The notes: generated by a model from the letters alone, not told the origin. Counted from the stretch's first letter, positions 1 to 60,621 are shown. The stretch is DNA of 60,621 nt from an uncultured bacterium (GCA_903958395.1 CAJBSZ010000346.1:1-60621), one strand, 5' to 3'. Numbers and translations: made by a program.

Positions 1-3000
1 TCATGACATGAGGTATCACACAGGCCGAGAAGATCGTAAAATGATGTCGGCATATTCCGAACAAACATCATTTCGTGAGGAACCCTTACGGTCGGCATGT
101 GCGTATACAACATCGCCAACCTGGCGTTGCGTAATCCAAATGCCATTTCGTGGATCGGGTCTCGACTCGCCCACCTGCCGATCTCCGGGGAATAGTATCT
201 GTGGCCGTAATAATACAGCCCCGTCTCCTGATCTAAATATTTGCTAGAAAACCAAAAGTTAAAGTCATTTACCATCTGCCCGCTGGACGCGACTGTATTT
301 CCGTACGCATCATATTCCCGGTGCGCTACAACCGCGCCGCTAGCGTCAACATATTCCGAAATATTCCCGTTCGCATCGTAGCAGGGGAAATATGCAGTAC
401 CGTTCCGCATCACGGAAAGCAGGCCGCCAATACCGCCCGCACCCTGCTGTGTCCCGCTCAGGTCGAGCCCCCAGACGTAGGTATTCGTGACGCCGGCACT
501 GGAGGTTTCCTGGATTAAATTCCAGCCATCGTAAACGAAGTTATTCGTCACGCCGCTGACAATCTTCCGATAGCGGCGCGACATGTAATCGTATGAATAA
601 TTCGCGACCACAGCCTCGTTTGAAGCCCCTGTCATCCGATTCTCAGCATCCCAGGCGAAGGCGAAGCAGCCATCATTCGTGAGGTTTCCGTCGAGGTCGT
701 AAGCGGGGGCAATTTGAGATTGCTGATTTGAGATTACAAAATACTGGTTAAGGGAATTTGCCAGATATTCCGTGACGGCCCCATTATTCGTGGCCACCGT
801 CCGGTTCCCGATGGGATCATACCGGTATGAGAAATTGTTTATGCCCATGAGCGCCTCGACCAATTCACTGCGGGAATTATAGCCGAAGTTATTGGTCAGG
901 GAAGAAGAATCTACCCGTTGCGTCCGCCGTCCCACCGCATCGTTGGCATAGTCAAACTGTGAAATACGGTTCGTGCCGGAGGCGTTCAGGATTTGGGTGA
1001 GGAGGTTGCGGTTGGGCTCGAAGGAGCGGCGCACGCCATATCCTGTATTAGTTTCATTTAATGACTCATTTAAGTCGGAACCTGCTAGATATCCATAGCG
1101 GAAATTCTGAAACGGAAGAGACGCCGCCCGGAGGTCGGCGTCCACCTGGCGGAAGCGCCCCAACTCGTCATGACTGTAACGAATGGAGGACACCACGCTG
1201 GTGGAACCCGCCATCACGAGATCGTAGCCGACGGGTCGCCCTTGGGAATCATAGATGCGGACCAGTTCTGCGGCAGCATTGGTTTCAGACGCGAGTTGAA
1301 AAGCATCTGTGTAGGAAAACAGGCGGGTTCCTGTGCCGTCTGTAATAGTGGTTTGCCGGCCAAGGCGGTCGAATCCAAACGTAACGCCGGGGGTGTTGTC
1401 GCTGTAACTGATGTTCGTCAACTGACCGAGGCTGTCATAGCTATAGGCAGTCACAACACCTCGCGCCCAGGTGCGGGTGGCGAGTTTGCCGTCGGGGGTG
1501 TAGGTGTAGGAAGGGCCGTGGCCGTCCGCGTAGAGTTTGTTTGTTAACAACCCGGTTGCTTCATCATAGACCCAGCACGTACGGTCAAATGATGAAGTAT
1601 GAGTGATGAATGATGAATAGTTCGAGATGACCATGGAAGAGTCGCGAAGGGTGTACATGGCGGTCATGCGGCCGAAATCGTCGTAATCATAGGCGACGGG
1701 ATAGGTCGCGCCCCAGGTGGCGAGAACGTGCCCTTCATCATCGTAGGCGGTGAAGGTGCTATTGGTGAGGGGATCGGTCACCTGAATACGGCGCCCGAGG
1801 TCGTCAAAGACAAAACTTGTTCGATTGCTGGCGGCGTCCATGGTGGAGGTGACTTGGCCGAGAGAGTTGTAGGTGGTGTAGGAGCCGAGGGTTCGGGGTT
1901 CAGGGTTCAGGGAAACAATCTGGCGGCCGAGGGCGTCGTATGTGTAGGCGGTTTGGACTCCGGTTTTGGATGTTGAGGAGCTTAACTGGCCGTTGATGGT
2001 GACCTGCGTGGCGGCGTCTGTGGAATCGGGGTAGATCACCGTTTGGGTAAGGGTTTTGGCGGTGCGATCCACGTAGGTGCGGGAGGTAGTTTGGTTACCG
2101 AGGAGGTCGAAGGAACAGGATTCAGAAGTCAGGAGACAGGAGTCAGAAGAAACACCCAACCCTGTTAGACGAATCTTTTGAATGCTGTTGGTGATGGGGG
2201 TGGCGGAAGCGTTACCTGCATAGAGGATTGAGGCGCGGCATTGCCAGTAATCGCCTGATCCGTCCTGCTCGTACCATGTCGCGGATTCGTTGACGCGGTC
2301 GGGGCCAGCGAGGTCGAGAACGCCGTTGGTGTTCACGTCAAGGCCGGAACGGGTCTGCTCGCCCAGCTCGTTGTACTGGTAGAGCGTTGTCGAGTTGTTG
2401 GGTTGCTGGGTTGTTGAGATCAGTTGGCCCTTGGTGTTGTAGGAGTAGGTAGTGGCAACCACGGCACCGCCATAGCCGGGCTTCTCCGTCTTGACGGGAC
2501 GCCCCATCATATCGGTGGTGGTTTTCTGCCAGGCGGGAGAGTTGGTGCCAGCGGGGCCGCTAAACGATTTCGTCCAACGAAACCCGCTCGCGTCTATCCC
2601 ACTATCGTAGGCCGTCTTTACAATTTCATTTTCGGTGATGGACTTGGCTTGGCCGTCCAAATAGCGGGTGGTCGCGTTGGTCACGCCGCCCCGGATGGTG
2701 GTGCTGGCGACGCCCTCATAACGATAGGTGGTCACAATACACTGGCTGTCCAGTGACGAGATCAGGCGTCCGGCAAGGTCATATGTGTTGCTGCTAACTA
2801 ACTGGGTCAGCGGCCCGGCCGACAGGGTTTCCGTCAGGCGGCGCCCCTCGCTATCAAGGGTATAGCTCGTGATCCGATCAGCCTCGTTCGTGGTCGCTCC
2901 TTTTCTTATGATGGTGGTCAACTTGCCCAGCAAGTCATACCCGTAGAGGAACATGGTGCCGTCCCCTCCGATCTCCCATTCCTTGCCACAGCAGTTACCG

Positions 3001-4928
3001 CCCCATGACGCTTCGCTCTTCTCGCCCTTGGCATTCCTGACCAGCACGGGATGTTGCCACTCATCGAAACCCTTGGATGTCCACGCCACGCGCTCATAGT
3101 TTGGACCGCCGACGCAAACCCAGGTCTCGTCCAGCACTTCCTGGCTCATCGGGTCGAGGATGCGGGTTTCCTTTGTGGTCTTTCCTGCGATGCCTTCGGG
3201 ACTGATAGCCGTGCCATGCACAACGGTTTCGCGCCAGAAGGTTCCGGCTGGATTGGCCTCGAACGACGGGGGGATTTCGCCCACGCCAGGCTGATAGGTT
3301 CCATATTCGTAGGTGAATGTATCCATGCGGCCATCGGGGTAAGCCACGGTGGCCACGCGCCCGATTTGGCAATTAACCGTATTGGTTCCGTAATAGGTGG
3401 TGACGGTTCGCAGGTTATTGGTGTCGCCATAGGCGGCGGCCGGGGTCGTGGCCTTCTCGACAATCTCCTGCAGTTCGCCGTTGCCGCCCTGCCGGTAGCC
3501 GCGATAGGTGCGGGCGACCACCGTGCCCAGGATGGATTCCGTGACCATGCGGGGCAACTGGTCGTTCAGGCGCGGGCTGTCGGCGAGATCCACGGGCGCA
3601 TAACTGGTGAGCACCGCGTGAGCCGCAGTGACCGATGAAGTGAGCGACGAATCCTTGATGGCGGAAAGCTCATTGGTTACGCGCCCGGCGGCATCATAAC
3701 GGTGCCAGCGCCAACTTCCATCGGGATCAATGGCGGATTCCGTCAGACCGGCGGCGGTATAGGTGAAGAGGTTGGTCTGGTTTACTCCGCCGGTTTCGGT
3801 GATGCGGCGCGTAACGCCATCACCCCAGCCAAAGGACTTGATCTGCTCGACATAACGGCTTACGAGGGTGCCATCGGCCGCTTTGACGGAATGTGTGACC
3901 CATCGCTCAGTGCGGGCATCATTCCACATTGTTGCGTCCTCCTCCTGGCGCGCCACATCAAGGCCGTCGCCCGAAGTCATGATCCAGTCTTCGGCATCAG
4001 GGTTATAGGTAAAATCGTAGACCGTCGTCCGCCCCGCCATGGAACGTGTAACGATGAGTTTGCGCAATGTTCCAGGCAACGGGTTGGCGAAAGACCAAGT
4101 TTCGAAGGGAACCGCGCCCGCGTCGATGCGATAGTACCCATTGGTATCCTTGCCGCCGACCATGCTGGCAAGAGTGTAGAACTTCAGGGCATAGCGGCTC
4201 GAATCGGTGACCACGATATCCGCCAGCCGGGTTGGCAGAAGCACCTGCCGCAGGCTCTGGCTGGAATCCCGGATCACCTCGACGCCCATGTCTTGGTAGG
4301 TTTCCTCGCGACCGGCCACGGTTCGATGGCTGACCATCTGCATATATTGCGGTGATGTCTTATAGGCGTTGAAGCGGTAACGCTCCCCGTCCCCGGTGTA
4401 GAGATCATAGTAGGCGGGCTCCTTCAATACCGTCCACCCATTCGCATCCACCATAAAAAGCCGACACTTCTTGATCTGCGCATCACCAAACACGGGAACA
4501 CCAATGGATTCGTTGTCCTTGAAGTTGAAAAGGAAGGGGACACCCGCGCTCTGAATCAAGGTTACCTGGCGGGGGGCACCCGCGGCAGTCACCTCATGGG
4601 ACACCCCTTTCATGGCATAGCCAGCCACGAAGTTCAGGGTCTGGGGTGAATAAACCGCCTCGGACAACTGATTCTCGCCCATCCGGAAAAGCGCCAACTT
4701 GACGGAACTTCCCGGCCGCATCGGGCCTGCAACGATCTTCACCCAGGCGCACCCTGGTCCAGCGGCACTTGTGGTTGTCGGACAACTTGAACACGACGGG
4801 CCATACGTTCCCGCAGGGCAGGCCAAATTGGTGGCAGGGGCAACTCCCCAGATCACCGCTGGCACACAACACCACATCATGACGCCCACACACCACACCA
4901 GCGCCCTGATTGCTTTTATATTCTTCAT
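1..4928 (-). CDS. RHS/YD-repeat protein 1 with N-terminal signal peptide (3' end runs off the window; absent from ORF track)
   Basis: Manual translation from ATG at 4928: MKNIKAIRALVWCVGVMMWCCVPAVIWG...CAWVKIVAGPMRPGSS, collinear with the RHS at 12417..17642. The start frame matches the frame at the left edge, which reads the RHS core FSSKYLDQETGLYYYGHRYYSPEIGRWASRDP and the cleavage motif YDLLGL near nt 22-39. The start overlaps the upstream stop (ATGA). Confidence 0.9.
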   Translation of the reverse strand, partial: MKNIKAIRALVWCVGVMMWCCVPAVIWGVAPATNLACPAGTYGPSCSSCPTTTSAAGPGCAWVKIVAGPMRPGSSVKLALFRMGENQLSEAVYSPQTLNFVAGYAMKGVSHEVTAAGAPRQVTLIQSAGVPFLFNFKDNESIGVPVFGDAQIKKCRLFMVDANGWTVLKEPAYYDLYTGDGERYRFNAYKTSPQYMQMVSHRTVAGREETYQDMGVEVIRDSSQSLRQVLLPTRLADIVVTDSSRYALKFYTLASMVGGKDTNGYYRIDAGAVPFETWSFANPLPGTLRKLIVTRSMAGRTTVYDFTYNPDAEDWIMTSGDGLDVARQEEDATMWNDARTERWVTHSVKAADGTLVSRYVEQIKSFGWGDGVTRRITETGGVNQTNLFTYTAAGLTESAIDPDGSWRWHRYDAAGRVTNELSAIKDSSLTSSVTAAHAVLTSYAPVDLADSPRLNDQLPRMVTESILGTVVARTYRGYRQGGNGELQEIVEKATTPAAAYGDTNNLRTVTTYYGTNTVNCQIGRVATVAYPDGRMDTFTYEYGTYQPGVGEIPPSFEANPAGTFWRETVVHGTAISPEGIAGKTTKETRILDPMSQEVLDETWVCVGGPNYERVAWTSKGFDEWQHPVLVRNAKGEKSEASWGGNCCGKEWEIGGDGTMFLYGYDLLGKLTTIIRKGATTNEADRITSYTLDSEGRRLTETLSAGPLTQLVSSNTYDLAGRLISSLDSQCIVTTYRYEGVASTTIRGGVTNATTRYLDGQAKSITENEIVKTAYDSGIDASGFRWTKSFSGPAGTNSPAWQKTTTDMMGRPVKTEKPGYGGAVVATTYSYNTKGQLISTTQQPNNSTTLYQYNELGEQTRSGLDVNTNGVLDLAGPDRVNESATWYEQDGSGDYWQCRASILYAGNASATPITNSIQKIRLTGLGVSSDSCLLTSESCSFDLLGNQTTSRTYVDRTAKTLTQTVIYPDSTDAATQVTINGQLSSSTSKTGVQTAYTYDALGRQIVSLNPEPRTLGSYTTYNSLGQVTSTMDAASNRTSFVFDDLGRRIQVTDPLTNSTFTAYDDEGHVLATWGATYPVAYDYDDFGRMTAMYTLRDSSMVISNYSSFITHTSSFDRTCWVYDEATGLLTNKLYADGHGPSYTYTPDGKLATRTWARGVVTAYSYDSLGQLTNISYSDNTPGVTFGFDRLGRQTTITDGTGTRLFSYTDAFQLASETNAAAELVRIYDSQGRPVGYDLVMAGSTSVVSSIRYSHDELGRFRQVDADLRAASLPFQNFRYGYLAGSDLNESLNETNTGYGVRRSFEPNRNLLTQILNASGTNRISQFDYANDAVGRRTQRVDSSSLTNNFGYNSRSELVEALMGINNFSYRYDPIGNRTVATNNGAVTEYLANSLNQYFVISNQQSQIAPAYDLDGNLTNDGCFAFAWDAENRMTGASNEAVVANYSYDYMSRRYRKIVSGVTNNFVYDGWNLIQETSSAGVTNTYVWGLDLSGTQQGAGGIGGLLSVMRNGTAYFPCYDANGNISEYVDASGAVVAHREYDAYGNTVASSGQMVNDFNFWFSSKYLDQETGLYYYGHRYYSPEIGRWASRDPIHEMAFGLRNARLAMLYTHMPTVRVPHEMMFVRNMPTSFYDLLGLCDTSCH
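1120..1146 (-). repeat. REP-like palindrome inside RHS1 (GTGGACGCCGACCTCCGGGCGGCGTC)
   Basis: Hairpin GACGCCG..CGGCGTC; identical copy at 13843..13869 in RHS2; read in frame as VDADLRAAS. Confidence 0.65.
2116..2150. repeat. Heptamer tandem array (CAGRAGT-like x5) inside RHS1
   Basis: CAGGATT CAGAAGT CAGGAGA CAGGAGT CAGAAGA; absent at the equivalent site in RHS2. Confidence 0.75.
2386..2417. repeat. Octamer tandem array (GTTGYTGR x4) inside RHS1
   Basis: GTTGTCGA GTTGTTGG GTTGCTGG GTTGTTGA; the same family occurs at 13054, 13219, 15103 and intergenically at 52158. Confidence 0.75.
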
Positions 4929-5797
4929 TCTAAATTTCCTCTTGCATCCAATTTCAAAAACAACAACTTCGGTTGCATTATCTTTGCATTTATCTTTTTG
5001 ATGGCTGCCCGTGCGGCCGTCTTGAGCCGGATATCCGTACTAGTTACGGTGGTTCTCATAAGATCCTCATCCGATTTGTCTCCCAAGGCACCCAAACTGG
5101 CCATGGCCGAAATCCGAACCGGCACGGATCCGTTTACAGCCAGTTTACGGGCGTCTGGAAGGACACTTTGCTCACCCAGATCCGCGCAGATCTGCAACGC
5201 CGTGATTTTGGCAGGTTCGCCGTATGCCGGCGAACGCACCATCGACAGCGCCTTGGCCGCGACACGAGCCCGGTCAACCGATCCCTGCCCGCACAAATTG
5301 AAAAGCGCAATCAGTCCGGTTCCAGGAATACTGCCTTGTCGCTCGTCCACCGCTGACCAGAGAACACGCAGTACTTTTTCCCGGATACCCGCGTCCCCAA
5401 CCGTCGTGTAGATGTCTCCCAGATGCTGCACACAATAATCACGCCATGCCTCTTCATGGGAACGGTCGCCATACATCGCGATCAGATGACCCGCCAAGTC
5501 CGGGGGCATCACCTGTTGCATTTTGAGTGAATTCACGACGTCATTCTTGATCGCGCATAACTCGCCAGGTTGAGCAGGATCCTCGCCTGCCTTGCGATCC
5601 AGAAAGCCGTAGAGGGCCGTGATCTCTTCTTTGGAAACGGTTTTGCCAAGCGTCCTAGCCGCCTCGATGCGGGCCGGAAAGGCGGTTTCCGCCGCCCCCA
5701 GAATGATGGCCAAATTGGCGGGAGGTGCGGCGCAGGCCACGGGAATGCCCCAGATCGCGGAAAGAACCGTCATGATAATGAATATCCCTTTACTCAT
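4925..5797 (-). CDS. Exported HEAT/ARM-repeat protein
   Basis: Likely start ATG 5797 (MSKGIFIIMTVLSAIWGIPVACA, signal-like) overlaps the upstream stop. Helical repeats AKITALQICADLG, VRISAMASLGALG, RLKTAARAAIKKI. Confidence 0.75.
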   Translation of the reverse strand: MSKGIFIIMTVLSAIWGIPVACAAPPANLAIILGAAETAFPARIEAARTLGKTVSKEEITALYGFLDRKAGEDPAQPGELCAIKNDVVNSLKMQQVMPPDLAGHLIAMYGDRSHEEAWRDYCVQHLGDIYTTVGDAGIREKVLRVLWSAVDERQGSIPGTGLIALFNLCGQGSVDRARVAAKALSMVRSPAYGEPAKITALQICADLGEQSVLPDARKLAVNGSVPVRISAMASLGALGDKSDEDLMRTTVTSTDIRLKTAARAAIKKINAKIMQPKLLFLKLDARGNLE

Positions 5798-8700
5798 CAG
5801 TTCCCTCCTATGTACAAACCGCCCTGATAGAGCTTCGTCGTGTGGCAGGTTGATGACCGGGATGAAGCCGACTGCAGCATGCGGTAGGTGCAAACGCCCA
5901 GTTCGTTGAAATCGGCAGCCGTAAGGGTCTTATTGAGAGTGCCGTCAAGGAACGTGACGCCCCCTGCAAAGATGTGAAGAACCACAGTGAGATCGGACGG
6001 GACATAGCCCAGTTGCAAGCGAACCTCGACCATGCGGCTTCCATCGGCAAAGGTTTCGACCACCTTGAAATAAGTGCCATGGTCGCCCCTGATTGAACTG
6101 ATCTTTGCACTATCCAGAACGGGGCCATCCGCACCCAGCCGCGCCACCATATAAAAAGGGCCGTCCGTCGGGTTCATGAGGGTGAAGCGAGTGCCGCCGC
6201 CGACAAGGTTGGTGGACGAAACGCTGAGTTGGCTGTCGGCCTGCACCACGGCGTCTGTCTTGATGCCCGGACAATCCCAAGTGCGGGCCTGGCCGGTGAC
6301 GCACTCCGCCTCCTCGCCGTTGAATGAACCCGAGATAACCTGAACCGCAAGAGACCCGTTGGTGAACGTGGTTTCATTGCTGCAGGCGCCGAGGACGGTA
6401 AAGTTTCCCGCCTGGCTGAAGCAATAGGGAACAGGGCTCCCCACCATGGCGACTAGGTTCGTAACCACATTCGTTCCGGTTGAGACCATGAACGTGGCCA
6501 GGCCATTAGTGGCTTCCACAGGCCAGGCCGAGAGCCTGAGCGAACTGCCGCCCCGGATTGCCAGCCCGTTGCTGAAGGAGGCATCAAGCAGGTTGACTGC
6601 CTCCCAAATCACATTGTTGGACACCATGACGCCGCTACTCTGATCCGCCGTCACTATTTCGGTCGTGTTTGTGGGGGAGATGAAGACATTGGCAAACCAC
6701 GTGGTCCTCAAGCCGTGCTGTACCGCCACAATCTGCTGGGTTTGTCCGCCGGGCGCATAGGATGCGGCGATTGACAGCCGTTCCTGATAAACAGCGGATC
6801 CTTCCATGCAAATCGGTGACACCAGAGTGGATTCGGGCACAGGCCCGGTTTCCGACAAGGAAGCCATGCGGTGATCAAGCCAGTCGGGGATGCCATTGGT
6901 ATTGGCATCCAAGCCGCCAAAGGACTGCAACTTGAGGGAATTGACCTTCAGGAACGTGTTGGGTGTGTCATTGTTCCACCGAAGCCTGATGACATGATCT
7001 CCCGCCGCGAGTTCAGGAAGAAAGAAGGTGGCAGTACAGTTGGTTCCATACGGAGCCTTGACGGTCTGGCGGCCCGAGATCGTGCCATCAATGAACAGGC
7101 TCAAGTCAAACGTATTCAGGGCTGTGAGAACGTTCTGTTGAGTCACATTGACGGCGACGGCGAAGGTTCCGTTGCTTGGGATGGCCAGCAAGTAGTCCAG
7201 GGAACCGCTCCGTTCACGGGCAGAGATGGCGACGCCTTCGATAGCCCATGTCCCGATCCACGACGTGGCGTCACGGCCGTTCAGCACGAGAAGATCCGTC
7301 ACGGTTCCGTTGAAATCCACGACAAGCGGGTCGGCATACGCCATGATTTCAACCTTGTCGTTGACTCCATCCCCATCCGTGTCTGCCACCTTGGGTTTTG
7401 TGCCTGCAAGGTATTCCCCACTATTCAGGAGTTGATCCCCATCCGGATCGGCGGCCGCATCGTTGACAAGGGGATTTGTCCCATTATCCACCTCCCATTT
7501 ATCCGGCAGCCCATCGGAATCGGTGTCAGATTTAAGCGGACTGGTCTTATAGGTGTTGACCTCCGCGCCGTCTGACAGGCCGTCGCCATCGGTGTCCGGA
7601 TTGTGGGGATCGGAACTGGCCTGATATTCCTTAAGGTTGGAAAGGCCGTCGCTGTCAGGGTCGGCGGAGGCATCGTTGACGAGCGGATTGAGAGCGTGGT
7701 CAACCTCCCACTTGTCAGGCATGCCATCGGAATCTGTGTCAGCGGATTTTGGATTGGTGCCCAGTTGGTACTCCTGCATGTTGGTGAGGCCATCGTTATC
7801 GGGGTCAGCCCCGGAATCGGGAGTGAGGGGGGCGGTCCCCTTGGTGATCTCCCACTGATCGGGGAGCCCATCGTTGTCACTATCGCTGCTATGTGGATCG
7901 GTCCGGTTTAGAAATTCATGGCGGTTATCCACTCCATCGCCGTCCGCATCGTCGGTTGCCGCCGCCTCAAGATTCCCGAAATGAATCATCTCCCAGCCAT
8001 CACAAAGGCCGTCATTGTCAGTGTCGGTGTCATCATCAATAATCGCAATCGAGGCCGAGGCATTCGTGGGGTTGATGAAATAATTGCCTTGGGCAATGGT
8101 GACCGTTATCGTTTCCGCACCTTCGAGCCAGAGATCATCGAGGGTCGGAACCGTGAACGAAACCTGGGGGGCCCCGGAGGGGATGACGACGGTCCGAGGA
8201 ATGGCCGAGAAGTCGGCCCCTTCGGTGGCGGCGCCACCTGGAACCGCAAGGTTGACCGACAGGGCAAGGTTGGTGTCCTGCGCCAGGCGGCTGAGAGTGA
8301 ACGTGCCTGCCTGTGCTGGTTCGGCGCCATTCGCCGTACCCGCAATGGAGACCTGCTGCTCACCATAGACCAGAATCTGGTCGGTCATAGCCTTGTACTG
8401 GAAGCGGATCCATTCAGGAGACTGTGCCAGGGATTCGACACGGAGTTCGTCCAGCATGCCCACATAGCCGGAGGAACCACTTGCGGCGGCGCCAAACCAG
8501 AAAGCGGTAACGGGACTATAGGCGCGGGTTTTCCCCGTCCCGCTGTGCCAGAGTTCACCATTGACGTAGATGCGCATTATGCCGGAGGCCCGATCCTTGG
8601 TGAAGGTCCAGTGGTTCCACCCGCCCTTGAAGAGATTGGTGGTGGCCAGTTTGTTGATGCGGTCGTAATTGCCGAAGGCATCCCAATAGACGTTTGAGTC

Positions 8701-11340
8701 GCTCCACGGGACATGAGCGTTAAGTTCCCGGCCCATGACGCTGGTTCCCTCAAAACAGGTGACGCCAAGAGGTTGATTCGTGGCGCCGTATTGCCAGAAG
8801 CTGATGGAGACCGCATTGCTGATCGTGGCCAAGGCGGAGGGAGGGACGATAACGCTATCGGACCCGCGGAAGTTGCGGGCGTTGCCAAGAATACCGGTGA
8901 CACACACGGCACCGACGTTGGTGGCGGGATGAGCGGCCGGGGCGGAATCGGACAGAACGGTGTTGGTTTCGGAAAGATGCCATACGCCCAGGAAGTTCGT
9001 TGACCAAGTGGCGGAAGCATTTGAGGAATTGGTGGCCTCAGGGTTGTTGTAATGCAGCCAGAAATAACCGGTCGAGTTGGTTCCACCCGCGTCGGGGAGA
9101 CGGACCCAGAAGAGGGACTCGCCACCGGGGTTCCAGCGCTCAAGTTCAAAGGCCAGCGGCGCTCCGGTGGCGTCGGTGAAGAGGATGTCGCGGCCGGCGG
9201 CAGCACATTGGGAATAGTCCACCCGTTCCGGGGTGAGGCGGATCAAAACGGGAACATCGGCCAGGGAATTCGTGAGCACGCCGTCACGGAAGGAGAGTTT
9301 GAGGCGATTGCGCCAATGTGAGGCGGGGTGGGATTCGGCATCGGCGGGATCGGTTCCTCGCTGGACCTCGTCGGCATCCTTGAAACCATCGAGGTCGGAA
9401 TCGGAAGCCAAGGGATTGGAGTGCCAGGTATTGACCTCGGTACCGTCGAGAAGGCCATCGTTGTCGCTATCGGACTTCGCCAGGTCGGTGCCGTGCAGAT
9501 ACTCGGACGTATTAGATAGGCCGTCGAGATCGGAATCCAGCGCCCCATCCGCCGCGCTGGCGGGATTGAGCGCATGGGCGATTTCCCATCCGTCAGGCAT
9601 GGAATCATTGTCCGAATCCGGATTGGCGGGACTTGTTCCAAGGCGATATTCTTCACCATTGTTCACCCCATCATGATCAGAATCGCCGGACTCCGTCTCG
9701 TTGGTGTTCCCCATGTACTGCATCTCCCAGTCATCCGGCAAAGTGTCGCCATCCAGCGACAATCCGGCAGGCACGTTGGTGCTGACGCTGAATTGGTCCA
9801 AGCCACCCGACCCACCCTCCATGGCAAACTCGTGGAGTTCGCTTGCGGGGATGCCGAAACCCAGATCCTCAGCCACCTTCATGCCATTGAGACATATGAG
9901 CCAGCGTTGGGCGGCGAAGTCCATGCCGATAGAGAGCCGAACCCAAGACTCCAGTTTAACAGGAGGAACGTTCGTAAGAGACATCCATTTCTGGCCCGCC
10001 GGCTTGCGCCCATCCTGCACGACGAGATGGCCTTGGGGATCGAACATAAAGGCGACGGTTTGATTGGTCATGTCCTGGGGGATGTCAGCGGCCTTTGCCG
10101 CGGCATGGAAATCCACCCACGAAATCTGGCCAGGCAGTTGGGCGAAAAGACGGTGTACCTCCGATGTCACGATCCCGGAGTGGAACCGGATAGCCTGTTC
10201 GCCCTCCCAGACAACATTGGTCTGGACAAGGACCGTGTTACTCGGCGATGCGATCCACCCGTTCTGCCCGTTCACGTCGCCCACATGCACCGTGTTCGTC
10301 TCGAACCGGTCAAGAAACGGCAAACGAGTGAAATCGTTGGAGGCATAAGGGTCCAGACCCATCGCTCGTTCAGCGGCATCGCTCATCCCATCCCCGTCCA
10401 AATCCGGGTCGGTCAGGGTGATATTCACGCCACTCGTGTTGCCGGTAAGAACCAGCGAGGTGGCACCATTGGGAGCCTGATATCCGCCGCGTGGTTCCCA
10501 GTCATCTGGGATGCCATTGCCGTTCACATCCCGGAAGGCACGGGGATACCAGGTCTGCCTCAGTGGCAAACCCGACAACGTGTACACCCCTGGAATACCG
10601 AGGGTCAGGTAATGCGCCGACGCCCAATCCGCAGCATTGGTCGTAGCCAATACATGGATCACCCCCATCTGGACACCGACATAGAACACCTGGCCGGTGA
10701 TGGCGGCACAGGGCACAGACAAGGCTGAATCAAGGTCGCTCCCCCAGGCCAGTTCCTCCGAATCAGAATACCCATCGCCATCACGGTCCGAAGAAAGCAG
10801 GGTGTCGAATATCGTCATCGCGCCAGCGTCGCGCCTGAGCCGAATACCCGTCGCATTGGTATAGAGGCCAAACGGGATGGTGAAAGTCCGGCTCGTCACC
10901 CCACCCCCGCCCGAGAGCAGGTTATTGAAGAGATTTGATGTGAAAACAGGTTCGTTCGGGTCATTCGTCCCAGGAAACCCGTAGAGATCCAGCATCAGGG
11001 TGGCGTTGCTGTGATCCACATAATCCAACTGCATCAGCACATTGTTTGTCAGGTGGATTCGATCCACCTCAATGTTCAAAGCGGCTTCGTTGGTGTCCCC
11101 GGCCTCCACCACCCAGGCGGGGATATTGGTGTTCCATGCGCCGCCGATCTTGAACGCCGACACCATCCAGTCCGGCCATGGCGAAAACAGAACATCCTCA
11201 TTGCTGACACAGGTTGAATCGCCCCACGGAATCCAGGCATCGGTGACGGCATTGGTGGAGGGGTTATCAGCCCGGGAAGGCAGAACACAACCCAAGAGAA
11301 CAAAGGCGAGAACAGAGCAATATAAATAAGATATTTTCAT
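5797..11340 (-). CDS. Large secreted multidomain protein (thrombospondin type-3-like DxDxDG repeats, DUF2341, LamG-like, Calx-beta)
   Basis: 1847 aa with a signal peptide; many DxDxDGxxDxWE..GTxP repeats; DUF2341-like VPVLIRL..DILFTD..FELERW..FWVRLP; LamG-like WNHWTFT..RIYVNG..LDELRV; Calx-beta-like ATEGADF..VVIPSG..DDLWLEGAETITVTI. Confidence 0.85.
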   Translation of the reverse strand: MKISYLYCSVLAFVLLGCVLPSRADNPSTNAVTDAWIPWGDSTCVSNEDVLFSPWPDWMVSAFKIGGAWNTNIPAWVVEAGDTNEAALNIEVDRIHLTNNVLMQLDYVDHSNATLMLDLYGFPGTNDPNEPVFTSNLFNNLLSGGGGVTSRTFTIPFGLYTNATGIRLRRDAGAMTIFDTLLSSDRDGDGYSDSEELAWGSDLDSALSVPCAAITGQVFYVGVQMGVIHVLATTNAADWASAHYLTLGIPGVYTLSGLPLRQTWYPRAFRDVNGNGIPDDWEPRGGYQAPNGATSLVLTGNTSGVNITLTDPDLDGDGMSDAAERAMGLDPYASNDFTRLPFLDRFETNTVHVGDVNGQNGWIASPSNTVLVQTNVVWEGEQAIRFHSGIVTSEVHRLFAQLPGQISWVDFHAAAKAADIPQDMTNQTVAFMFDPQGHLVVQDGRKPAGQKWMSLTNVPPVKLESWVRLSIGMDFAAQRWLICLNGMKVAEDLGFGIPASELHEFAMEGGSGGLDQFSVSTNVPAGLSLDGDTLPDDWEMQYMGNTNETESGDSDHDGVNNGEEYRLGTSPANPDSDNDSMPDGWEIAHALNPASAADGALDSDLDGLSNTSEYLHGTDLAKSDSDNDGLLDGTEVNTWHSNPLASDSDLDGFKDADEVQRGTDPADAESHPASHWRNRLKLSFRDGVLTNSLADVPVLIRLTPERVDYSQCAAAGRDILFTDATGAPLAFELERWNPGGESLFWVRLPDAGGTNSTGYFWLHYNNPEATNSSNASATWSTNFLGVWHLSETNTVLSDSAPAAHPATNVGAVCVTGILGNARNFRGSDSVIVPPSALATISNAVSISFWQYGATNQPLGVTCFEGTSVMGRELNAHVPWSDSNVYWDAFGNYDRINKLATTNLFKGGWNHWTFTKDRASGIMRIYVNGELWHSGTGKTRAYSPVTAFWFGAAASGSSGYVGMLDELRVESLAQSPEWIRFQYKAMTDQILVYGEQQVSIAGTANGAEPAQAGTFTLSRLAQDTNLALSVNLAVPGGAATEGADFSAIPRTVVIPSGAPQVSFTVPTLDDLWLEGAETITVTIAQGNYFINPTNASASIAIIDDDTDTDNDGLCDGWEMIHFGNLEAAATDDADGDGVDNRHEFLNRTDPHSSDSDNDGLPDQWEITKGTAPLTPDSGADPDNDGLTNMQEYQLGTNPKSADTDSDGMPDKWEVDHALNPLVNDASADPDSDGLSNLKEYQASSDPHNPDTDGDGLSDGAEVNTYKTSPLKSDTDSDGLPDKWEVDNGTNPLVNDAAADPDGDQLLNSGEYLAGTKPKVADTDGDGVNDKVEIMAYADPLVVDFNGTVTDLLVLNGRDATSWIGTWAIEGVAISARERSGSLDYLLAIPSNGTFAVAVNVTQQNVLTALNTFDLSLFIDGTISGRQTVKAPYGTNCTATFFLPELAAGDHVIRLRWNNDTPNTFLKVNSLKLQSFGGLDANTNGIPDWLDHRMASLSETGPVPESTLVSPICMEGSAVYQERLSIAASYAPGGQTQQIVAVQHGLRTTWFANVFISPTNTTEIVTADQSSGVMVSNNVIWEAVNLLDASFSNGLAIRGGSSLRLSAWPVEATNGLATFMVSTGTNVVTNLVAMVGSPVPYCFSQAGNFTVLGACSNETTFTNGSLAVQVISGSFNGEEAECVTGQARTWDCPGIKTDAVVQADSQLSVSSTNLVGGGTRFTLMNPTDGPFYMVARLGADGPVLDSAKISSIRGDHGTYFKVVETFADGSRMVEVRLQLGYVPSDLTVVLHIFAGGVTFLDGTLNKTLTAADFNELGVCTYRMLQSASSRSSTCHTTKLYQGGLYIGGN

Positions 11341-11486
11341 ATGGATTTATTCCTACCACGCTGAAGCGATTACCCGAACCCGATTCTCGATATATCTATT
11401 CCCATCCATTCCAACTGCCTGCAGACAATCTACCCTCACAAAACTAAACCAGTAAACACCTTCCCCATCCTGATAATCCTGGCTTT

Positions 11487-11578
11487 TGTCAATTCTTGTA
11501 CTCCATATCTGTGATTTTTCGGGCACCTTGCACCGCGAGAAATGCCCAGCCAATATTTGTATTTTACAGCCCCGTCAG
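11487..11578 (-). promoter_or_regulatory. Conserved ~90-bp upstream element, copy 1 (contains TTGACA on the minus strand)
   Basis: Aligns with 17667..17762 (TGTCAATTCTTGT.CTCCA...GGCACCTTG...ATGCCCA...TTTACAG.CCCGT.AG). Confidence 0.5.
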
Positions 11579-11720
11579 AACCTCGTTAATTTGCAATTTT
11601 CGGTCTGACTCCGACTGCCCCCAGGACCCCGCATCCAGTTTAAAAAAACAACATACGATAACGCGGAAAAAGCAATAATTTTACTTTTCACGACTGTACT
11701 CTCCTTAGATGTTGACCCCG

Positions 11721-12359
11721 TCATGGCTGGCTGTTAGTGGATCCCATGAGTGTAAACATATACTGCAAACGTGAAGCTGTACAATAGCTCCATGTCACTT
11801 GCCCGCCCTGACGATCTGCATCCAAAGGAAACACGGCACTTAAATTGATTACATGAGCACCATCTCCTTTCACCGGAAACAATAAAGGAAAGGAAATATT
11901 CTCCCCTGGCCGCAGATAATGGCAAATTCTTTCTGGGTTGAACTGAAAGTTCAAACTAAACTCATCTTTTATGATGCCTCCAGCATTGAATGAAGCGGAA
12001 GACAGCTTTAACAAATATGGCTCATAAATAACGATAGGACGTTGCGATATATTATAAATAACAATCTCGGCGACGGGCGTACTAGGCTGCCGATAGAATG
12101 CTGCACCATTAGCCTTCATGGATACATCCCCGATATTAATTTTCAGCTTCTCCGCCAGTTTTTTGAGATTTCCCCGATAGAAGAGATCGCATGCGTCCTT
12201 ATGGAATTCCGCCTCAGTTGCAGAGGCACCCTCACTAGACATCGAAGTCACTTGCTCGGCAAACAGAAGAGCCTTGCGTACTGATAAACCAGTAATCACT
12301 AAATAGCAGGTTAAAAAACCCAACAGAAACGTCATTAACCGCCAAAATATTTTCCTCAT
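11721..12359 (-). CDS. Hypothetical membrane-anchored protein, candidate immunity protein for RHS2
   Basis: Directly downstream of RHS2; AT-richer than its flanks; N-terminal TM helix followed by a beta-rich domain. Confidence 0.6.
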   Translation of the reverse strand: MRKIFWRLMTFLLGFLTCYLVITGLSVRKALLFAEQVTSMSSEGASATEAEFHKDACDLFYRGNLKKLAEKLKINIGDVSMKANGAAFYRQPSTPVAEIVIYNISQRPIVIYEPYLLKLSSASFNAGGIIKDEFSLNFQFNPERICHYLRPGENISFPLLFPVKGDGAHVINLSAVFPLDADRQGGQVTWSYCTASRLQYMFTLMGSTNSQP

Positions 12360-12416
12360 ACACTTTCCTCAAGTTGGCCTTATCTGTCATTCAAAGCAGA
12401 AGCAGAAATCTCAGCA

Positions 12417-15400
12417 TCAATACCACACATATGTAGTTGTCTCCATCTTATCAAATTCGACAGCGATTAAGGGCGCAGGAAACCAGTGATAATTAGAGGC
12501 ATTGATCGTAAAATCTGTACGAAGCAATATCGCCCAAATTGAAACACACTCAGTGATCTGAATATGACTAGTTACTGTGGAAAATGACCTGGGCGAGGGT
12601 GGAGGAAGGCCAGGCGGAGTTCGAGTCGGAATTATGGGGTACCACCAGATCTCCCAATGAGTTGAAAGTATGTCTTCTGACACGACAAGTTGTTCACATC
12701 CAGAGCAATGCTTTGGTCCAAGTACAATCGTAGCAACCAAACCAAGATGATCACATACGTCAATTGGATTATTGATGCAAAAAGCAATAATATTGATATC
12801 AAATTTCTCCCCAATCGGATCCCTTGACGCCCATCTCCCGATTTCCGGTACATAGTAGCGGTAGCCGTAATAATAGAGGCCAGTCTCAGCATCCAAATAT
12901 TTCGTTGAAAATCGGAACGGATTCACATCGGCCAGCGCACCGGTCTTACTAATCGTGTTCCCGTACGGATCAAACTGATATTGCGCCAGGAATTGGCCAT
13001 TCGTTCCAAACAAATCAGTAACATTGCCGTTTGCATCGTAGCAGTAGAAAGCAGTTGTTGAGTTGCTAGGTTGCTGCGTTGTTAAGGAAAGCAGGCCGCC
13101 GATGGTGCCAGCCCCCTGGGCGGTTCCGGAAAGATCAAGCCCGTAAACGTAACTGTTTGTAGAGGATGCGGTGCTTTCGGCGATCATCGCCCAGCCCTGG
13201 TAGAGGAAGCGGGTTTCAGTTGCTGGGCTGTTGAGTTGTTGAGTTGTTTTGGAGACCCGCCGGGACATGTAGTCATAACTGTTGGAGATCACAGTGTTCG
13301 CGTTGGATGCGAGCACCAGGCGGTTCTCGGCGTCCCACACGAAAGTCCAGTCCTTGTAGCCGCCCCCTCCTTCGCCAAGGCTACGGAGGGCTACGATGTT
13401 ACCGTCGGCGTCGTAGGCGGGGAGGATTTGAGATTGCTGATTTGAGATTGCAGAATACTGGTTTAGGGAGTTGGCAGCATAACTCATGGCTTCCGCATTG
13501 TTGGTGGCTGTCCGGCGGTTGCCGATGGGGTCGTAACGATAGTTGAATGAGTTTGTGCCCATGGCTACGTCTTCCAATTCACTGCGCATATTGTAGGCGA
13601 AAAGGTTCGAGATAACGGTGGAAATGTCGACATCGGCACGCTTGACGCGGCGACCGATCTCATCATTCGCATAATCAAACCTGTGAAGCGAAACACCACC
13701 GAAACCATTAGTTATCGAGGCGATCAGGTTGCGGTTGGGCTCGTAACTGCGAACAACGTTGAAGCCTGTGTTTGTCTCCTGCACTGACTGGATTAAGTCG
13801 GAACCCGCCAGATATCCGTAGTGGAAGTTCTGCGGCGAAAGAGACGCCGCCCGGAGGTCGGCGTCCACCTGAAGGAAACGCCCCACAAGGTCATAGCCGT
13901 AGCGGACTGAGTAAGACGGCTCATCCGGAGGATTCGCCCTACCTGAAGAAAAGCCAGCGGGACGACCGAGAGTGTCGGAGGCGTAGGTTAGGATGCTTTG
14001 CGTGTTAGTTTCGGACACGAGTTGCAGGGCATCATTGTAGGTGAAGGTTCGGGTGCCGGTTCCATCGGTGATGGTGGTTTGACGGCCAAGGCGGTCGTAG
14101 GCGAAGGTTATGCACGGGGTTCCATCGCTGTAACTGATGTTGGTGAGTTGGCCAAGCGAATCGTAATTATAGGTGGTGACGACGCCACGGGCCCAGATTC
14201 GAGTGAGGAGCTTGCCGTCAGCCGTATATGTGTAAGCTGGTCCCTTGTTGTCGGAATAGAGCTTGTTGGTGAGGAGCCCTGTGGCCTGATCGTACAGCCA
14301 GGTCGTACGGTCAAAGGATGAAATATGAGTTAGGAATGATGAATAGTTCGAGATGACGAGCGAGGAGTCGCGAAGGGTGTACATGGCGGTCATGCGACCG
14401 TAGGCGTCGTAATCATAGGCCACGGGGTAAGTGGCACCCCAGGTGGCGAGAGTGCGTCCTTCAGCGTCATAGGTGGTAAAGGTTGAATTCGAGAGCGCAT
14501 CAGTGACCTGGACACGGCGGCCGAGGTCGTCAAAGATAAAACTTGTTCGATTGCTGGCGGCATCCATGGTCCAGTCGATCTGGCCATTGTCATTGTAATG
14601 GCTCACGGTCGCGACGGAGCGCGACCCTCCAGAGGATACACAAGTTTGGCGGCCTAGGGGGTCGCATGCGTAGGCGGTTTGGACGCCGGTCTTGGATGTC
14701 GAGGAGGTCAATTGGCCGTTGATAGTGACCTGGGTGGCAGCGTTGGTGGAATCGGGGTAGATCACGGTTTGCGTGACGGCCTTGTTAGCGCGGTTCACGT
14801 AGTTGCGCGAGATGGTGGAGTTGCCCAGTGTGTCCACCGCCACCATTTCAGATGCGCAATTTGAGATTTGAGAAAACCCTGTGAGGCGGGTCTTCTGCAC
14901 GCTGTTCGTTGTGGGGGTGGCGGAATTGTTTCCGGCGTAAAGAATCAAGGCGCGGCACTGCCAGTAATTACCGGCACCGTCCTGCTCGAACCAGGAGGCG
15001 GATTCGGTGACGCGGTCGGGACCGGCAAGATCGAGAACACCGTTGGTGTTAACGTCGAGACCGCTCCGGATCTGCTCGCCCAGTTCGTTGTACTCGTTGA
15101 GGGTTGTTGAGTTGTTGGGTTGCTGGGTTGTGGAGGTTAGCTGGCCCTTAGTGTTGTAGGAGTAGATTGTCGCAAGCAGGTAGTCGCCCCCTTCGACTCC
15201 GCTCAGGGCAGGAAAACCGGGCTTTTCTTCCTTCACGGTGCGGCCAAGCAAGTCTGTTGTGGTCTTGGACCACATCGGGGAGTTGGTTCCGGAGGGACCC
15301 GTGAAGGCTTTGCTCCACTGTGTGCCGTTCGTGCTGACTCCATAATCATAGGCGGTCTTGATCACACCATTTTTGAGAGTGGCCTTCCATTGGCCCGAAA

Positions 15401-17642: not shown

Positions 17643-17666
17643 CACCACCCGAAATGTCTCGTTATG

Positions 17667-17762
17667 TGTCAATTCTTGTTCTCCAACATCATTTATTTGC
17701 CAGGCACCTTGTTCGCCGAGATTTATGCCCAACGACTATTTTGCAATTTACAGTCCCGTTAG
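17667..17762 (-). promoter_or_regulatory. Conserved ~90-bp upstream element, copy 2
   Basis: Aligns with 11487..11578; lies just upstream of the RHS2 start. Confidence 0.5.
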
Positions 17763-27795: not shown

Positions 27796-27859
27796 GGAGG
27801 GACGCGCTTTGTCGCGTCCTGGGCAGTTGAAAGGCGGCCACGACGTAGCATGGCCCTCC
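27796..27859. repeat. Intergenic inverted pair of GGAG-type REP-like elements (REPIN-like)
   Basis: GGAGGGACGCGCTTTGTCGCGTCC on the plus strand and GGAGGGCCATGCTACGTCGTGGCC on the minus strand. Confidence 0.7.
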
Positions 27860-50574: not shown

Positions 50575-50590
50575 GGTTATCTCCCTTTCC

Positions 50591-50628
<38 letters not shown>

Positions 50629-50634
50629 TTTCTT

Positions 50635-52157: not shown

Positions 52158-52251
52158 GTTGTCAGGTTGTTGGGTTGCTGAGTTGCTAAGGTCGAATTCC
52201 GTGTGACTCTCCGACCTCATTTAACAACTCAACAACTTGACAATCAACAAC
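52158..52251. repeat. Two inverted octamer arrays flanking a short spacer
   Basis: GTTGTCAG GTTGTTGG GTTGCTGA GTTGCTAA, then GGTCG..CGACC, then TTAACAAC TCAACAAC TTGACAA TCAACAAC. Confidence 0.75.
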
Positions 52252-52255
52252 TCTC

Positions 52256-57095: not shown

Positions 57096-57626
57096 CATCA
57101 AAAACCGGCTCTCGGACATTAAAACCCCAATAAACAAGCGTTTTAGTCAATGTTTACGGGGCTGATACGGGAATAGCGTGTCGCAACTTGTCTTCTCCTG
57201 TTCCTAACTATTCTATCTGCGGACGGCTGGCTGACGACAACTATATTTACCCATCGACGACAACTATAATTACCCATTGATAATGTGGTCGATAGACTGC
57301 GGTATTTGTGTAGGAGGCACAGGTATGGCAGTACCCCCCCGCTACGCACCTATTGCCCACTGTCCACCACGTAATCCGCCAAAGTCACCGCCCCGTTGCC
57401 CTCACGTGGCAACGAAACCGGCCATTCGACACTTACCATGGTCATTGTCGCCCGGGCTTTTTTTTTAGGGGGGGGAGGCTGGCAAGAGGGCTCGCTTCAT
57501 TCAGGCCGCCCCTGAATCCGCACCCCCACAACCGGGGTTTGCCTAAGCAAAGACGTTCGCTTCGCCGAGGACTGCTAGCGGCAAGGCAATCCAGCTTAAT
57601 TGGCCGGTAAAGGAGCAGAATAACCC

Positions 57627-59218: not shown

Positions 59219-60621
59219 TCATAATCGTTTGGCTCTGGGTTTTCTTCCCGTTCCGAGCCAGTCGCCAAAACCCTTCCATCCTTTGTCGGCATAGACTCCA
59301 CTCGGAAAAGCAGGGATATCTTTGGGCAACCGCCCTTTGTGAGGCATCTTACCTTTGCAGTAAGCCAACCATTCTTTAATCCCTTTGAGTTGGAGTTTAT
59401 GTGCGAATATCCGCGCTTTACCGAATGAACGGTATCGTTTGTGCTGGTTTGCAATCCTCCCAGTTCCAAGCCAGTCACCAACGCCTAACCAGCCTTTACC
59501 CCTGTAAACTCTATCAGGCTTTACGGGAATATCTTCAGGAAGTTTTCCCTTCTTAGGCATCTTGCCCTTGCAGAAGGTTATCCACTCATCTTGGTTCTTG
59601 ATTTTTAGTCCTCTGATAAACGCCCGAGCATCACGGAACGCCCGATACTTCCGGAGGCGCGGCGCAATTGTCCCTGTCCCAAGCCAATCCCCCATCCCTT
59701 TCCATCCCTTATCGGCATAGGTATTGTCGGGTTTTGAGGGAATGTCGACAGGGAGTTTCCCTTTCTTAGGCATCTCGCCTCTACAAAACTCACGCCATTC
59801 GCCTTGATTCTTGAGTTTAAGTTTGCGGGCAAACTCGCGGGCTTTGTGAAATTCGAGATACTTAATTGACCTGTATGCAACCCTTCCCGTTCCTAGCCAA
59901 TCGCCCATCCCTTTCCATCCCTTGTCGGCATAGGTCTGATTGGGGCAAGCGGGGATATCAGCGGGCAATCGGCCCTTATACAACATCTGTCCTTTGCAGA
60001 AAGCCCGCCACTCTGACTCAGCTTTGAGATTGAGTTTACGAGCGAATATTCGCGCCTCAGGGAAAGAGCGGTACCTCTTGAGGCGCGATGCTATTCTTTC
60101 CGTCCCGAGCCAATCTCCATAACCTTTCCAGCCTCGATGTGCGTAGGTATTATGCGGACCTTGAGGAATATCAGACGGGCGTGCAACATTATTTTTCAAT
60201 CTACCGTTGCAGAAAGAGAACCATTCTTTTTGTCCTTTAAGTTTGAGATTCCGTGCAAACGCCCGAGCCTCACGGAACGCCCGATACTTCCGGAGGCGCG
60301 GTGCAATTGTCCCTGTCCCAAGCCAGTCGCCGAAACCCTTCCAACCCTTTTGGGCATAAGTTTGGCTGGGAGTTGCGGGAATATCATCGGGGAGTTTCCC
60401 TTTCTTAGGCATCTTGCCTTTGCAGAAAGCTCTCCACTCCGATTCATTCTTGAGATTGAGATTCTGGGCAAAGTGCCTCGCATTTCCGAATGACCTGTAT
60501 TTCCTGAGATGCGCGGCAACTATCCCCGTTCCTAGCCAATCGCCCATCCCTTTCCATCCCTTGTCGGCATAGGTCTGATTGGGGCAAGCGGGGATATCAG
60601 CGGGCAATCGGCCCTTATGCA
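59219..60621 (-). CDS. Basic tandem-repeat protein (71-aa units resembling the 'integrase repeat unit' family); 5' end off the window
   Basis: Frame is open to the window edge (HKGRLPADIP); six full units plus a partial one of YRxFxxARxF..LK...EW..FCKG..P.DIP..P...Y...GWKG.GDWLGT. Confidence 0.85.
   Translation of the reverse strand, partial: HKGRLPADIPACPNQTYADKGWKGMGDWLGTGIVAAHLRKYRSFGNARHFAQNLNLKNESEWRAFCKGKMPKKGKLPDDIPATPSQTYAQKGWKGFGDWLGTGTIAPRLRKYRAFREARAFARNLKLKGQKEWFSFCNGRLKNNVARPSDIPQGPHNTYAHRGWKGYGDWLGTERIASRLKRYRSFPEARIFARKLNLKAESEWRAFCKGQMLYKGRLPADIPACPNQTYADKGWKGMGDWLGTGRVAYRSIKYLEFHKAREFARKLKLKNQGEWREFCRGEMPKKGKLPVDIPSKPDNTYADKGWKGMGDWLGTGTIAPRLRKYRAFRDARAFIRGLKIKNQDEWITFCKGKMPKKGKLPEDIPVKPDRVYRGKGWLGVGDWLGTGRIANQHKRYRSFGKARIFAHKLQLKGIKEWLAYCKGKMPHKGRLPKDIPAFPSGVYADKGWKGFGDWLGTGRKPRAKRL
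59257..60621. repeat. 213-bp coding tandem repeat
   Basis: The GDWL-encoding block recurs at 59257, 59470, 59683, 59896, 60109, 60322 and 60535. Confidence 0.92.

Follow-up and report, generated by a model that had tools for sequence, protein, structure and literature searches.

RHS1 and RHS2, two genes of one RHS subfamily in an uncultured freshwater bacterium, carry 17 short elements in frame, and all but one of the families to which these elements belong also occur in intergenic DNA and in unrelated genes of the same genome. Both genes are long minus-strand open reading frames (ORFs) within the leftmost 18 kb of the window, by which we mean the whole stretch of DNA analysed (GCA_903958395.1 CAJBSZ010000346.1:1-60621; 60,621 nt), corresponding to the entire contig C346 of assembly G000 (5.2 Mb, 559 contigs, 57% G+C). 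As a first-pass annotation of the window had proposed, short in-frame elements are present in both ORFs, comprising five families of hairpins that resemble repetitive extragenic palindromic (REP) sequences, heptamer arrays and octamer arrays (Table 1). The explanation that we prefer, with a probability of roughly 0.58, is a passive one: small repeats enter genes, the in-frame, stop-free copies at tolerant loops persist, and these copies then turn over by insertion and conversion.

Short repeats are read in frame in RHS1 and RHS2

Multiple PF05593 repeats place both ORFs in the RHS/YD-repeat family, and the two proteins share 64% amino acid identity (1036 of 1619 aligned residues). The elements within them are 21-40 nt long and code for 7-13 aa. 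The reading frames around them remain uninterrupted over more than 1000 codons, insertion being in frame as in palindromic elements of the Rickettsia type. Tandem arrays were called with Tandem Repeats Finder on the window, and those inside the RHS genes consist of 2-6 units with 72-100% matches. Most of the seven heptamer arrays listed in the first-pass annotation were recovered; however, the pair at 712 and 13425 turned out to be a duplicated 14-mer that is not shown to be a genome-wide family, and the one at 14858 has two units only. The six RHS hairpins (1120, 13365, 13843, 13915, 14607 and 15189) have stems of 6-8 bp, and their folding z-scores are weak (-0.7 to -2.1), shuffled controls folding nearly as well. 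Hairpin stability was therefore dropped as evidence, and these sequences were judged to be elements by their copy number.

Table 1 Positions in the window of the elements within RHS1 and RHS2, of their intergenic relatives and of the two ORFs
Feature	Position	Strand	Remarks
14-mer x2 (GATTTGAGATTGCT)	712..740	-	read ISNQQSQI, in two frames; twin of 13425; strand-turn-strand tip
REP a (GACGCCGCCCGGAGGTCGGCGTC)	1120..1142	-	read VDADLRAAS; cognate of RAYT gene on contig C56
AATGATG-family heptamer array	1588..1618	-	read SNYSSFITHTSSF; period 7 (Tandem Repeats Finder)
AGGGTTC/GAACCCT-family heptamer array	1888..1912	-	read LNPEPRTL; hypervariable LGRQ site
CAGRAGT heptamer array (AAGTCAG family)	2111..2150	-	read SSDSCLLTSESCS
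Octamer array (GTTGTTGG)	2386..2416	-	read TTQQPNNSTT
Octamer array	13053..13081	-	read TTQQPSNSTT; not in RHS1; loop 4 aa above modal length
Octamer array	13218..13248	-	read TTQQLNSPAT; TTCATCA heptamer array instead in G004 ortholog
REP b (CCCTCCTTCGCCAAGGCTACGGAGGGC)	13362..13391	-	30-nt insertion read ALRSLGEGGG; RHS2 only
14-mer x2	13425..13451	-	read ISNQQSQI; twin of 712, 100% identical over 24 nt
REP a	13843..13865	-	read VDADLRAAS; twin of 1120
REP c, GTAG-tagged (GGTAGGGCGAA..CCGGATGAGCCG, sense strand)	13915..13943	-	read GRANPPDEP, 7-aa insertion; cognate of RAYT gene on contig C412
Degenerate AATGATG-family heptamer array	14314..14348	-	read SNYSSFLTHISSF; 89% to array 1588 over 37 nt
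REP e (GGAGGGTCGCGCTCCGTCGCGACC, sense strand)	14607..14630	-	read SGGSRSVAT; LGRQ site; family of intergenic 27796
ATTTGAG x2	14859..14873	-	read SQISN; weak, two units only
Octamer array	15103..15135	-	read TTQQPNNSTT; twin of 2386
REP d (CCCTTCGACTCCGCTCAGGGC)	15189..15209	-	core of 24-nt insertion read PALSGVEG
Intergenic REP e copy	27796..27819	+	
(TTCATCA)x6 array	50587..50630	.	at gene edge; same family as 1588
Inverted pair of octamer arrays (52165/52223)	52165..52253	.	intergenic; hairpin form of the TTQQPNNSTT family
RHS1 ORF	3..4928	-	PF05593 E=2.5e-36; 1642 aa seen, ORF continues past the left contig end
RHS2 ORF	12417..17732	-	1771 aa; PF05593 E=9.8e-33

Equivalent sites are filled, empty or differently filled

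Nineteen homologs from G000 and nine relatives were aligned at the codon level, and 79 further homologs from the Planctomycetes-Verrucomicrobia-Chlamydiae (PVC) group, partly duplicating the first set, were added as a second set. The peptide PALSGVEG, which corresponds to one REP d (24 nt), was found in 2 of 15 rows, namely RHS2 and its 94%-identical ortholog in the related genome G004, while ALRSLGEGGG, corresponding to one REP b (30 nt), was found in 1 of 16 rows and is missing even in the 81%-identical C-terminal ortholog of G004. Thus, of the two peptides previously thought to be confined to RHS2, only the latter is. The REP c site reads GRANPPDEP in two rows and a VMAGSTSVVS-type sequence in four, and is empty in most. 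At another site, the loop either is 13 aa shorter or contains an array of the TTCATCA or the TCTSAAA family, and the array at 14314..14348 forms a 13-aa excursion relative to two homologs without an array. At the RRVSK site, an octamer array in RHS2 stands against a heptamer array in the G004 ortholog. The most variable position follows the LGRQ motif, where at least six fillers occur, including REP e, a GAACCCT array, a CTCTCCC..GGGGAGAG palindrome and an AACCATC-type array; the shortest homolog has none. With the PVC set added, the short loop is the modal state at the REP d (49/66), REP b (75/87) and REP c (54/93) sites. All three earlier proposals of different elements at equivalent RHS1 and RHS2 sites therefore stand at the codon level.

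Filled and empty sites were also seen in environmental contigs. In the run X8, which comes from a separate study, a contig is 30 letters shorter at 13360-13393, and 70 different letters take the place of 13194-13257; in a contig of X5, the 126 letters of window 13363-13488 are represented by 96. Contigs of X2 match the window exactly and break at repeats (ends at 13250, 13868 and 15245), and such contigs cannot reveal rare variants. Parts of RHS2 without cover in X5, X6 and X8 were left uninterpreted. In all four runs, contigs break or pile up at the REP a copy (window 13842-13871), with a depth of up to 147 in X8; because of the repeats, short-read assemblies of these genes become fragmented.

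Repeat families are genome-wide, and two have flanked transposase genes

Every hairpin and array family of the RHS genes, except the 14-mer, recurs elsewhere in either orientation, both between genes and in unrelated ORFs, which bears out the proposal that the elements belong to genome-wide non-coding families; the three intergenic relatives reported in the window are present as well (Table 1). Strong copies of the 14-mer are limited to the two RHS genes. REP a has 10 copies at no more than two mismatches in G000, REP e has 19 (14607 and the intergenic 27796 among them), and the search rows for REP b, REP c and REP d gave about 9, 17 and 10 copies, respectively. For (GAACCCT)3, 55 matches were obtained in the genome versus none for a reversed-pattern control. 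Among the tandem rows of the genome, period 7 is the most frequent (375, versus 188 for period 6 and 179 for period 8) and comprises several sequence families (AACCCTG, 65 arrays; AATGATG, 17; AACATTG, 13; ACCCCTG, 12), as described for heptanucleotide long simple sequence repeats (LSSRs). Since 31 of 40 neighbouring heptamer-array pairs are inverted, these arrays typically form a hairpin with a stem made up of 7-base units. A census based on 14-mers with at least six copies defined 2002 small elements genome-wide; with crude gene calls (longest-ORF greedy), 32% of them fall in the non-ORF part, only 7% of the genome, and 30% are deep within long ORFs, which account for 60% of it. Small elements are depleted from genes, yet far from excluded.

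The families differ in their spread among relatives. (GAACCCT)3 is present in 28 of 41 related genomes, and high counts are scattered over several families within one order, a pattern that looks like bursts or horizontal spread of an array-making agent. REP a is nearly limited to the genus (11 of its 16 genomes, and 1 elsewhere), and REP e is multi-copy in G004 and in G022. Stop-codon avoidance was considered as a test of coding selection on (GAACCCT)n and dropped, because intergenic copies and other genomes likewise often have the CCCCGAA variant, which removes an in-frame TGA. Two genes, one of them coding for a radical-SAM protein, have their ribosome-binding region and start codon enclosed by inverted (AGGGTTC)n/(GAACCCT)n arrays (C532:1175-1298 and C88:2107-2210). 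In such a hairpin the translation start would be sequestered; the downstream arm is translated as NPEPRTL.

Nine Y1_Tnp matches were found in the genome. Two belong to REPtrons with small HUH/Y1 genes, C56:152-676 and C412:25530-26105 (regions C56:1-900 and C412:25340-26120), which are 36% identical to each other, match PF01797 (C56:230-487 and C412:25653-25856) and show the HxH and Y motifs in their translations. Copies of REP a lie on both sides of the C56 gene and copies of REP c on both sides of the C412 gene. This layout matches the classical arrangement of REP-associated tyrosine transposases (RAYTs), with REP a and REP c as the cognate REPs, in line with the earlier suggestion that transposases flanked by the same repeats might exist. 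By the definitions of PMC3733652, REP c reads GGTAGGGCGA... and REP a ends ...GGCGGCGTC, which are GTAG/CGTC tags, whereas REP e starts with GGAGGG, which is neither. No RAYT gene flanked by REP b, REP d or REP e was found among the Y1_Tnp matches of the genome. The other seven Y1_Tnp genes (on C134, C122, C225, C329, C59, C317 and C144) are divergent paralogs of 340-360 aa with an N-terminal Y1_Tnp domain. A link between the heptamer arrays and these seven genes was rejected, their mutual identity being 20-65% and flanking repeats being absent. One of them (C144:7351-8430) lies directly beside a truncated RHS homolog, abutting unrelated sequence, and another (C122:5049-6065) lies a few kb from another RHS paralog.

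These distributions bear on whether the loop peptides are simply original RHS coding sequence, their likeness to intergenic repeats being due to chance or to fragments of RHS genes. We regard this as very improbable overall. Dozens of copies lie in unrelated genes and intergenic DNA in both orientations, RAYT genes in the two REPtrons are flanked by the same REPs, most homologs have empty sites, and the 41 related genomes contain anywhere from 0 to 206 copies of (GAACCCT)3. On the other hand, TTQQPNNSTT and ISNQQSQI are kept in many homologs at unchanged length, and strong matches to the 14-mer come from the two RHS genes only. An ancestral origin, which had been named as a possible refutation of the repeat interpretation, is thus largely refuted for the REPs and the AACCCTG, AATGATG and octamer families, and survives for the 14-mer alone.

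Elements are enriched in one RHS subfamily and also occur in housekeeping genes

For the density estimate, ORFs of at least 300 codons were considered, and the non-redundant arrays lying deep within them were counted if their period was 7, 8, 14 or 16. The four ORFs of this RHS subfamily contain 14 arrays in 16.4 kb (0.85/kb), compared with 234 arrays in 3082 kb (0.076/kb) for all other long ORFs and 2 arrays in 35.9 kb (0.056/kb) for six other RHS-type ORFs. The subfamily is therefore enriched 11-fold over other long ORFs (Poisson p ~8e-11), a figure that is too high because paralogs share ancestral arrays and that was derived from the same kind of crude, longest-ORF greedy gene calls. Enrichment in RHS genes, as had been suggested, thus holds for one subfamily and not for the six other RHS-type ORFs, which are at or below background; RHS shells as such are not special. 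Array density in the GH106 rhamnosidase gene and the AddB-like nuclease gene is above that of the RHS subfamily.

The first-pass annotation had noticed no elements in core genes, which is true of this window but not of the genome, where translations place arrays in frame in PriA, the AddB-like nuclease, a histidine kinase, a sugar dehydratase and a radical-SAM protein. The arrays of PriA (C229:84-2636) translate as PRTPNPEPRTLNPS and, twice, as EHRTFNIEHSTSN..FNVQCSMFNV, with both hairpin arms read. Comparison of PriA loci (L043-L066) revealed two insertion hotspots, one after FKEQLFV and one just before the Walker A motif. Within the genus these hold heptamer hairpins (G000 and G004) or REP-type peptides (G015, G009 and G007; SPLAGEDRGEG..PHPNPLPQGEREK), or are empty, and both are empty in all examined genomes outside the genus.

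The occurrence in housekeeping genes, which have no need for variation, makes it improbable that the elements have an adaptive or programmed role, in which they would diversify exposed loops, provide in-frame recombination handles, act as frameshift-type on/off switches or form mRNA structure. The arrays are moreover short and imperfect, and there are few or none in other RHS-type genes and in the neighbouring 1847-aa surface protein. Nevertheless, such a role would account for an enrichment confined to one RHS subfamily and for the number of fillers at a single codon site. It would also suit the three octamer arrays of RHS2, which are read in the same frame, so that recombination among them would stay in frame, and the inverted heptamer arrays that bracket start codons elsewhere in the genome.

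Loop positions and possible exchange between RHS1 and RHS2

An AlphaFold2 model of RHS2 residues 800-1690, built from a 14-sequence alignment, is poor (mean pLDDT 55, pTM 0.31), and only its strand/loop pattern was used. This pattern is a ladder of short strands, as expected. Among the residues of the four inserts defined by indels, 6 of 38 fall in predicted strands versus 49% overall, which weakly suggests that the inserts are located at loops between beta-strands, and the octamer and 14-mer cassettes span predicted strand-turn-strand tips. The proposal that RHS loops tolerate or attract repeats is weakly supported in so far as the inserts lie between predicted strands, but it does not extend to RHS shells in general.

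At the DNA level, RHS1 and RHS2 are 66% identical. Their longest identical runs are 33 nt (REP a), 32, 24 (14-mer), 24 (heptamer array), 24 and 23 nt (octamer array), with about 18 nt expected, and four of these six are on shared elements. Six patches reach an identity of at least 87%, with third-position identity of 0.71-0.85 versus 0.47 overall, and all four elements common to the two genes are within these patches. Such raised identity would fit short-patch gene conversion in the elements or their vicinity or, alternatively, DNA-level constraint, and it fits the earlier idea that the elements serve as recombination handles.

The same patches, set against the 66% background, could be taken to mean that recombination alone, without transposition, made the mosaic. 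In that case cassettes would have moved by homologous or microhomology-mediated exchange between RHS paralogs and orthologs as well as with dispersed copies (ectopic gene conversion), arrays would have grown in place by replication slippage, and the apparent insertions would be conversion tracts. Consistent with this, the state of a cassette tracks its immediate flanks (TLRDSS with the TTCATCA array, TYRGTN with the TCTSAAA array), the near-identical homologs L009 and L010 differ at several cassettes jointly, and some fillers substitute the ancestral tip at equal length. We nevertheless consider this history somewhat unlikely, as it leaves unexplained how REP a and REP c, each with a cognate RAYT gene, first arrived, why there are clean 24- and 30-nt insertions of exactly one REP with unchanged flanks, and why unrelated genes such as PriA contain the same elements.

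A proposed passive origin of the translated repeats

Under the passive explanation, the starting material would be a genome that carries REP hairpins, two families of which have their own RAYT genes, together with 7- and 8-base arrays that mostly form inverted pairs and thereby long hairpins. Once in coding DNA, whether by landing there or by being copied, an element would survive only if it keeps the frame, contains no stop and encodes residues tolerated at that place. The permissive places in this RHS subfamily would be the beta-hairpin tips of YD repeats and the inter-strand loops, which would therefore have accumulated elements and become hypervariable. The elements would then spread or be exchanged among RHS paralogs by short-patch gene conversion, and no dedicated function of the repeats would be required. 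We infer that the REPs arrived by transposition, that the elements are neutral and that the conversion tracts were seeded by the elements.

Several observations weigh against this explanation. A G022 homolog from another genus, which is only 50% identical to RHS2, has REP e at the same LGRQ codon, and the repeated use of the same codon by different families could indicate targeting rather than mere tolerance. Insert lengths of 12, 15, 21, 24, 30 and 39 nt do not follow multiples of the 7- or 8-base units. With TTQQPNNSTT and the ISNQQSQI 14-mer, a hairpin tip is replaced at equal or nearly equal length and the peptides are kept in several genera, a pattern that looks more like conserved coding sequence or conversion than insertion; because the tip length is unchanged and the cassettes are common to several genera, the octamer and 14-mer cassettes are not simple recent insertions. 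The overestimated 11-fold enrichment, the crude gene calls behind it and the poor structure model count on the same side.

Some of these observations would be expected if the loop codons of this RHS subfamily were targets of active, site-directed cassette exchange, the hairpin-forming arrays and the REPs being an undescribed class of micro-elements in Kiritimatiellia and related PVC bacteria that enter by copying and replace each other at fixed hairpin-tip positions. Examples that could be read in this manner are the near-equal 12- and 13-aa excursions produced by two heptamer families at a single site, the swap of an octamer for a heptamer array between orthologs of 81-94% identity, and the same REP at the same codon at 50% identity. 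We hold this proposal to be highly doubtful; if true, it would mean programmed diversification of a toxin shell, not passive tolerance.

Host and gene neighbourhood

The nearest public relatives of the RHS genes are in metagenome-assembled genomes labelled Kiritimatiellia, Verrucomicrobia, PVC group and Lentisphaerae, and the metagenome runs that contain window sequence are from lakes and fresh water. The host is a freshwater bacterium of the Kiritimatiellia/PVC group with a heavy load of small repeats. Between RHS1 and RHS2 sits an ORF with HEAT repeats (HEAT_PBS match). HIP1 counts gave no sign of a cyanobacterial origin: the motif, with 130 copies in the genome, is not enriched, so the HEAT_PBS match is no taxon marker.

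The end of an RHS core, which we take to be marked by a PxxxxDPxGL-type motif followed by a variable C-terminal tip, has the candidates RWASRDPIGE in RHS2 and RWASRDPIHE in RHS1, both followed by unrelated tails; their final residues deviate from that motif. The immunity gene of RHS systems is usually placed directly downstream, the position occupied here by a 212-aa ORF (window 11721-12359, minus strand) that follows RHS2 and has no Pfam match. Also between the two RHS genes, a TSP3/LamG/DUF2341/Calx-beta protein of 1847 aa (window 5797-11340, minus strand), probably exported too, lacks multi-copy elements despite its similar length. Near the right end of the contig, CCATCCCTTT occurs in two copies three times within 900 nt (window 59692-59710, 59905-59923 and 60544-60562), and a 23-nt unit is present in duplicate at window 57233-57277.

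Comparison with known repeat systems

GTAG/CGTC REPs are palindromes of 20-40 nt, mostly intergenic and often arranged as inverted dimers, some of which are mobilised by the RAYTs that they flank (PMC3733652). In-frame intragenic copies have been described, many of them in replication and repair genes, and intragenic GTAG repeats are most numerous in the verrucomicrobium Opitutus terrae (Di Nocera et al. 2013, PMC3733652). The REPs found here are likewise short palindromes, two families of which flank RAYT genes, and some copies are translated in frame; what differs is that several REP families are concentrated in one RHS subfamily together with 7-/8-base arrays, and that the same codon can be filled by different families in different homologs. 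RHS genes are not mentioned as hosts of intragenic REPs in the main-text parts of that paper considered here. In REPIN/RAYT systems, inverted REP doublets are extragenic, and a single-copy Y1 transposase gene is flanked by its REPs (Bertels and Rainey 2011, PMC3116915); C56 and C412 resemble these in having a Y1 gene flanked by its own REPs, whereas single REP units are translated here.

Rickettsia palindromic elements are selfish repeats inserted in frame into unrelated genes, with a conserved peptide that is thought to be compatible with the host fold (Ogata et al. 2000, 2002; review PMC10969869). They are about 100-150 bp long and encode a module of 30-50 aa, whereas the elements described here are 21-40 nt long and several of them are tandem arrays rather than single palindromes. 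Units of 7 bases are the commonest class of long simple sequence repeats in many prokaryotes, with a patchy phylogeny and often a position just upstream of start codons (Mrazek et al. 2007 via MacGregor 2015, PMC4679880). Known heptanucleotide LSSRs, of which the TAACTGA repeats of Beggiatoaceae are one case, are for the most part direct repeats between genes, and a low frequency within genes is reported for units whose length is not a multiple of three (MacGregor 2015, PMC4679880); the heptamers here are, by contrast, mostly inverted pairs (31/40), and many are translated.

Cyanobacteria reportedly carry both tandem heptamers, known as STRR sequences, and small dispersed repeats (attributed to Mazel 1990 and Elhai 2008), the latter being mobile repeats of 21-27 nt that are said to lie also inside genes and inside each other. 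The phylum and the sequences differ from ours, and HIP1 is not enriched here. Our literature search, in which RHS was not a search term and coverage was incomplete, found no report of such elements in RHS genes or in Kiritimatiellia.

Significance

The translation of small repeats is an already known phenomenon, and the finding gives no pointer to a new toxin mechanism; it clearly illustrates, in a natural setting, how selfish repeats remodel protein loops. One fold offers about ten permissive positions that are empty, filled or differently filled across paralogs, species and lake populations, and the donor families and two candidate transposases are in the same genome. This makes it possible to test by which route very small repeats enter genes and how much sequence load the tip of a beta-hairpin absorbs. 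For the annotation of PVC-group genomes, these results also carry a warning: low-complexity peptides such as NPEPRTL, FNVQCSMFNV, TTQQPNNSTT and LRSLGEGGG-like sequences in otherwise good genes are translated repeats.

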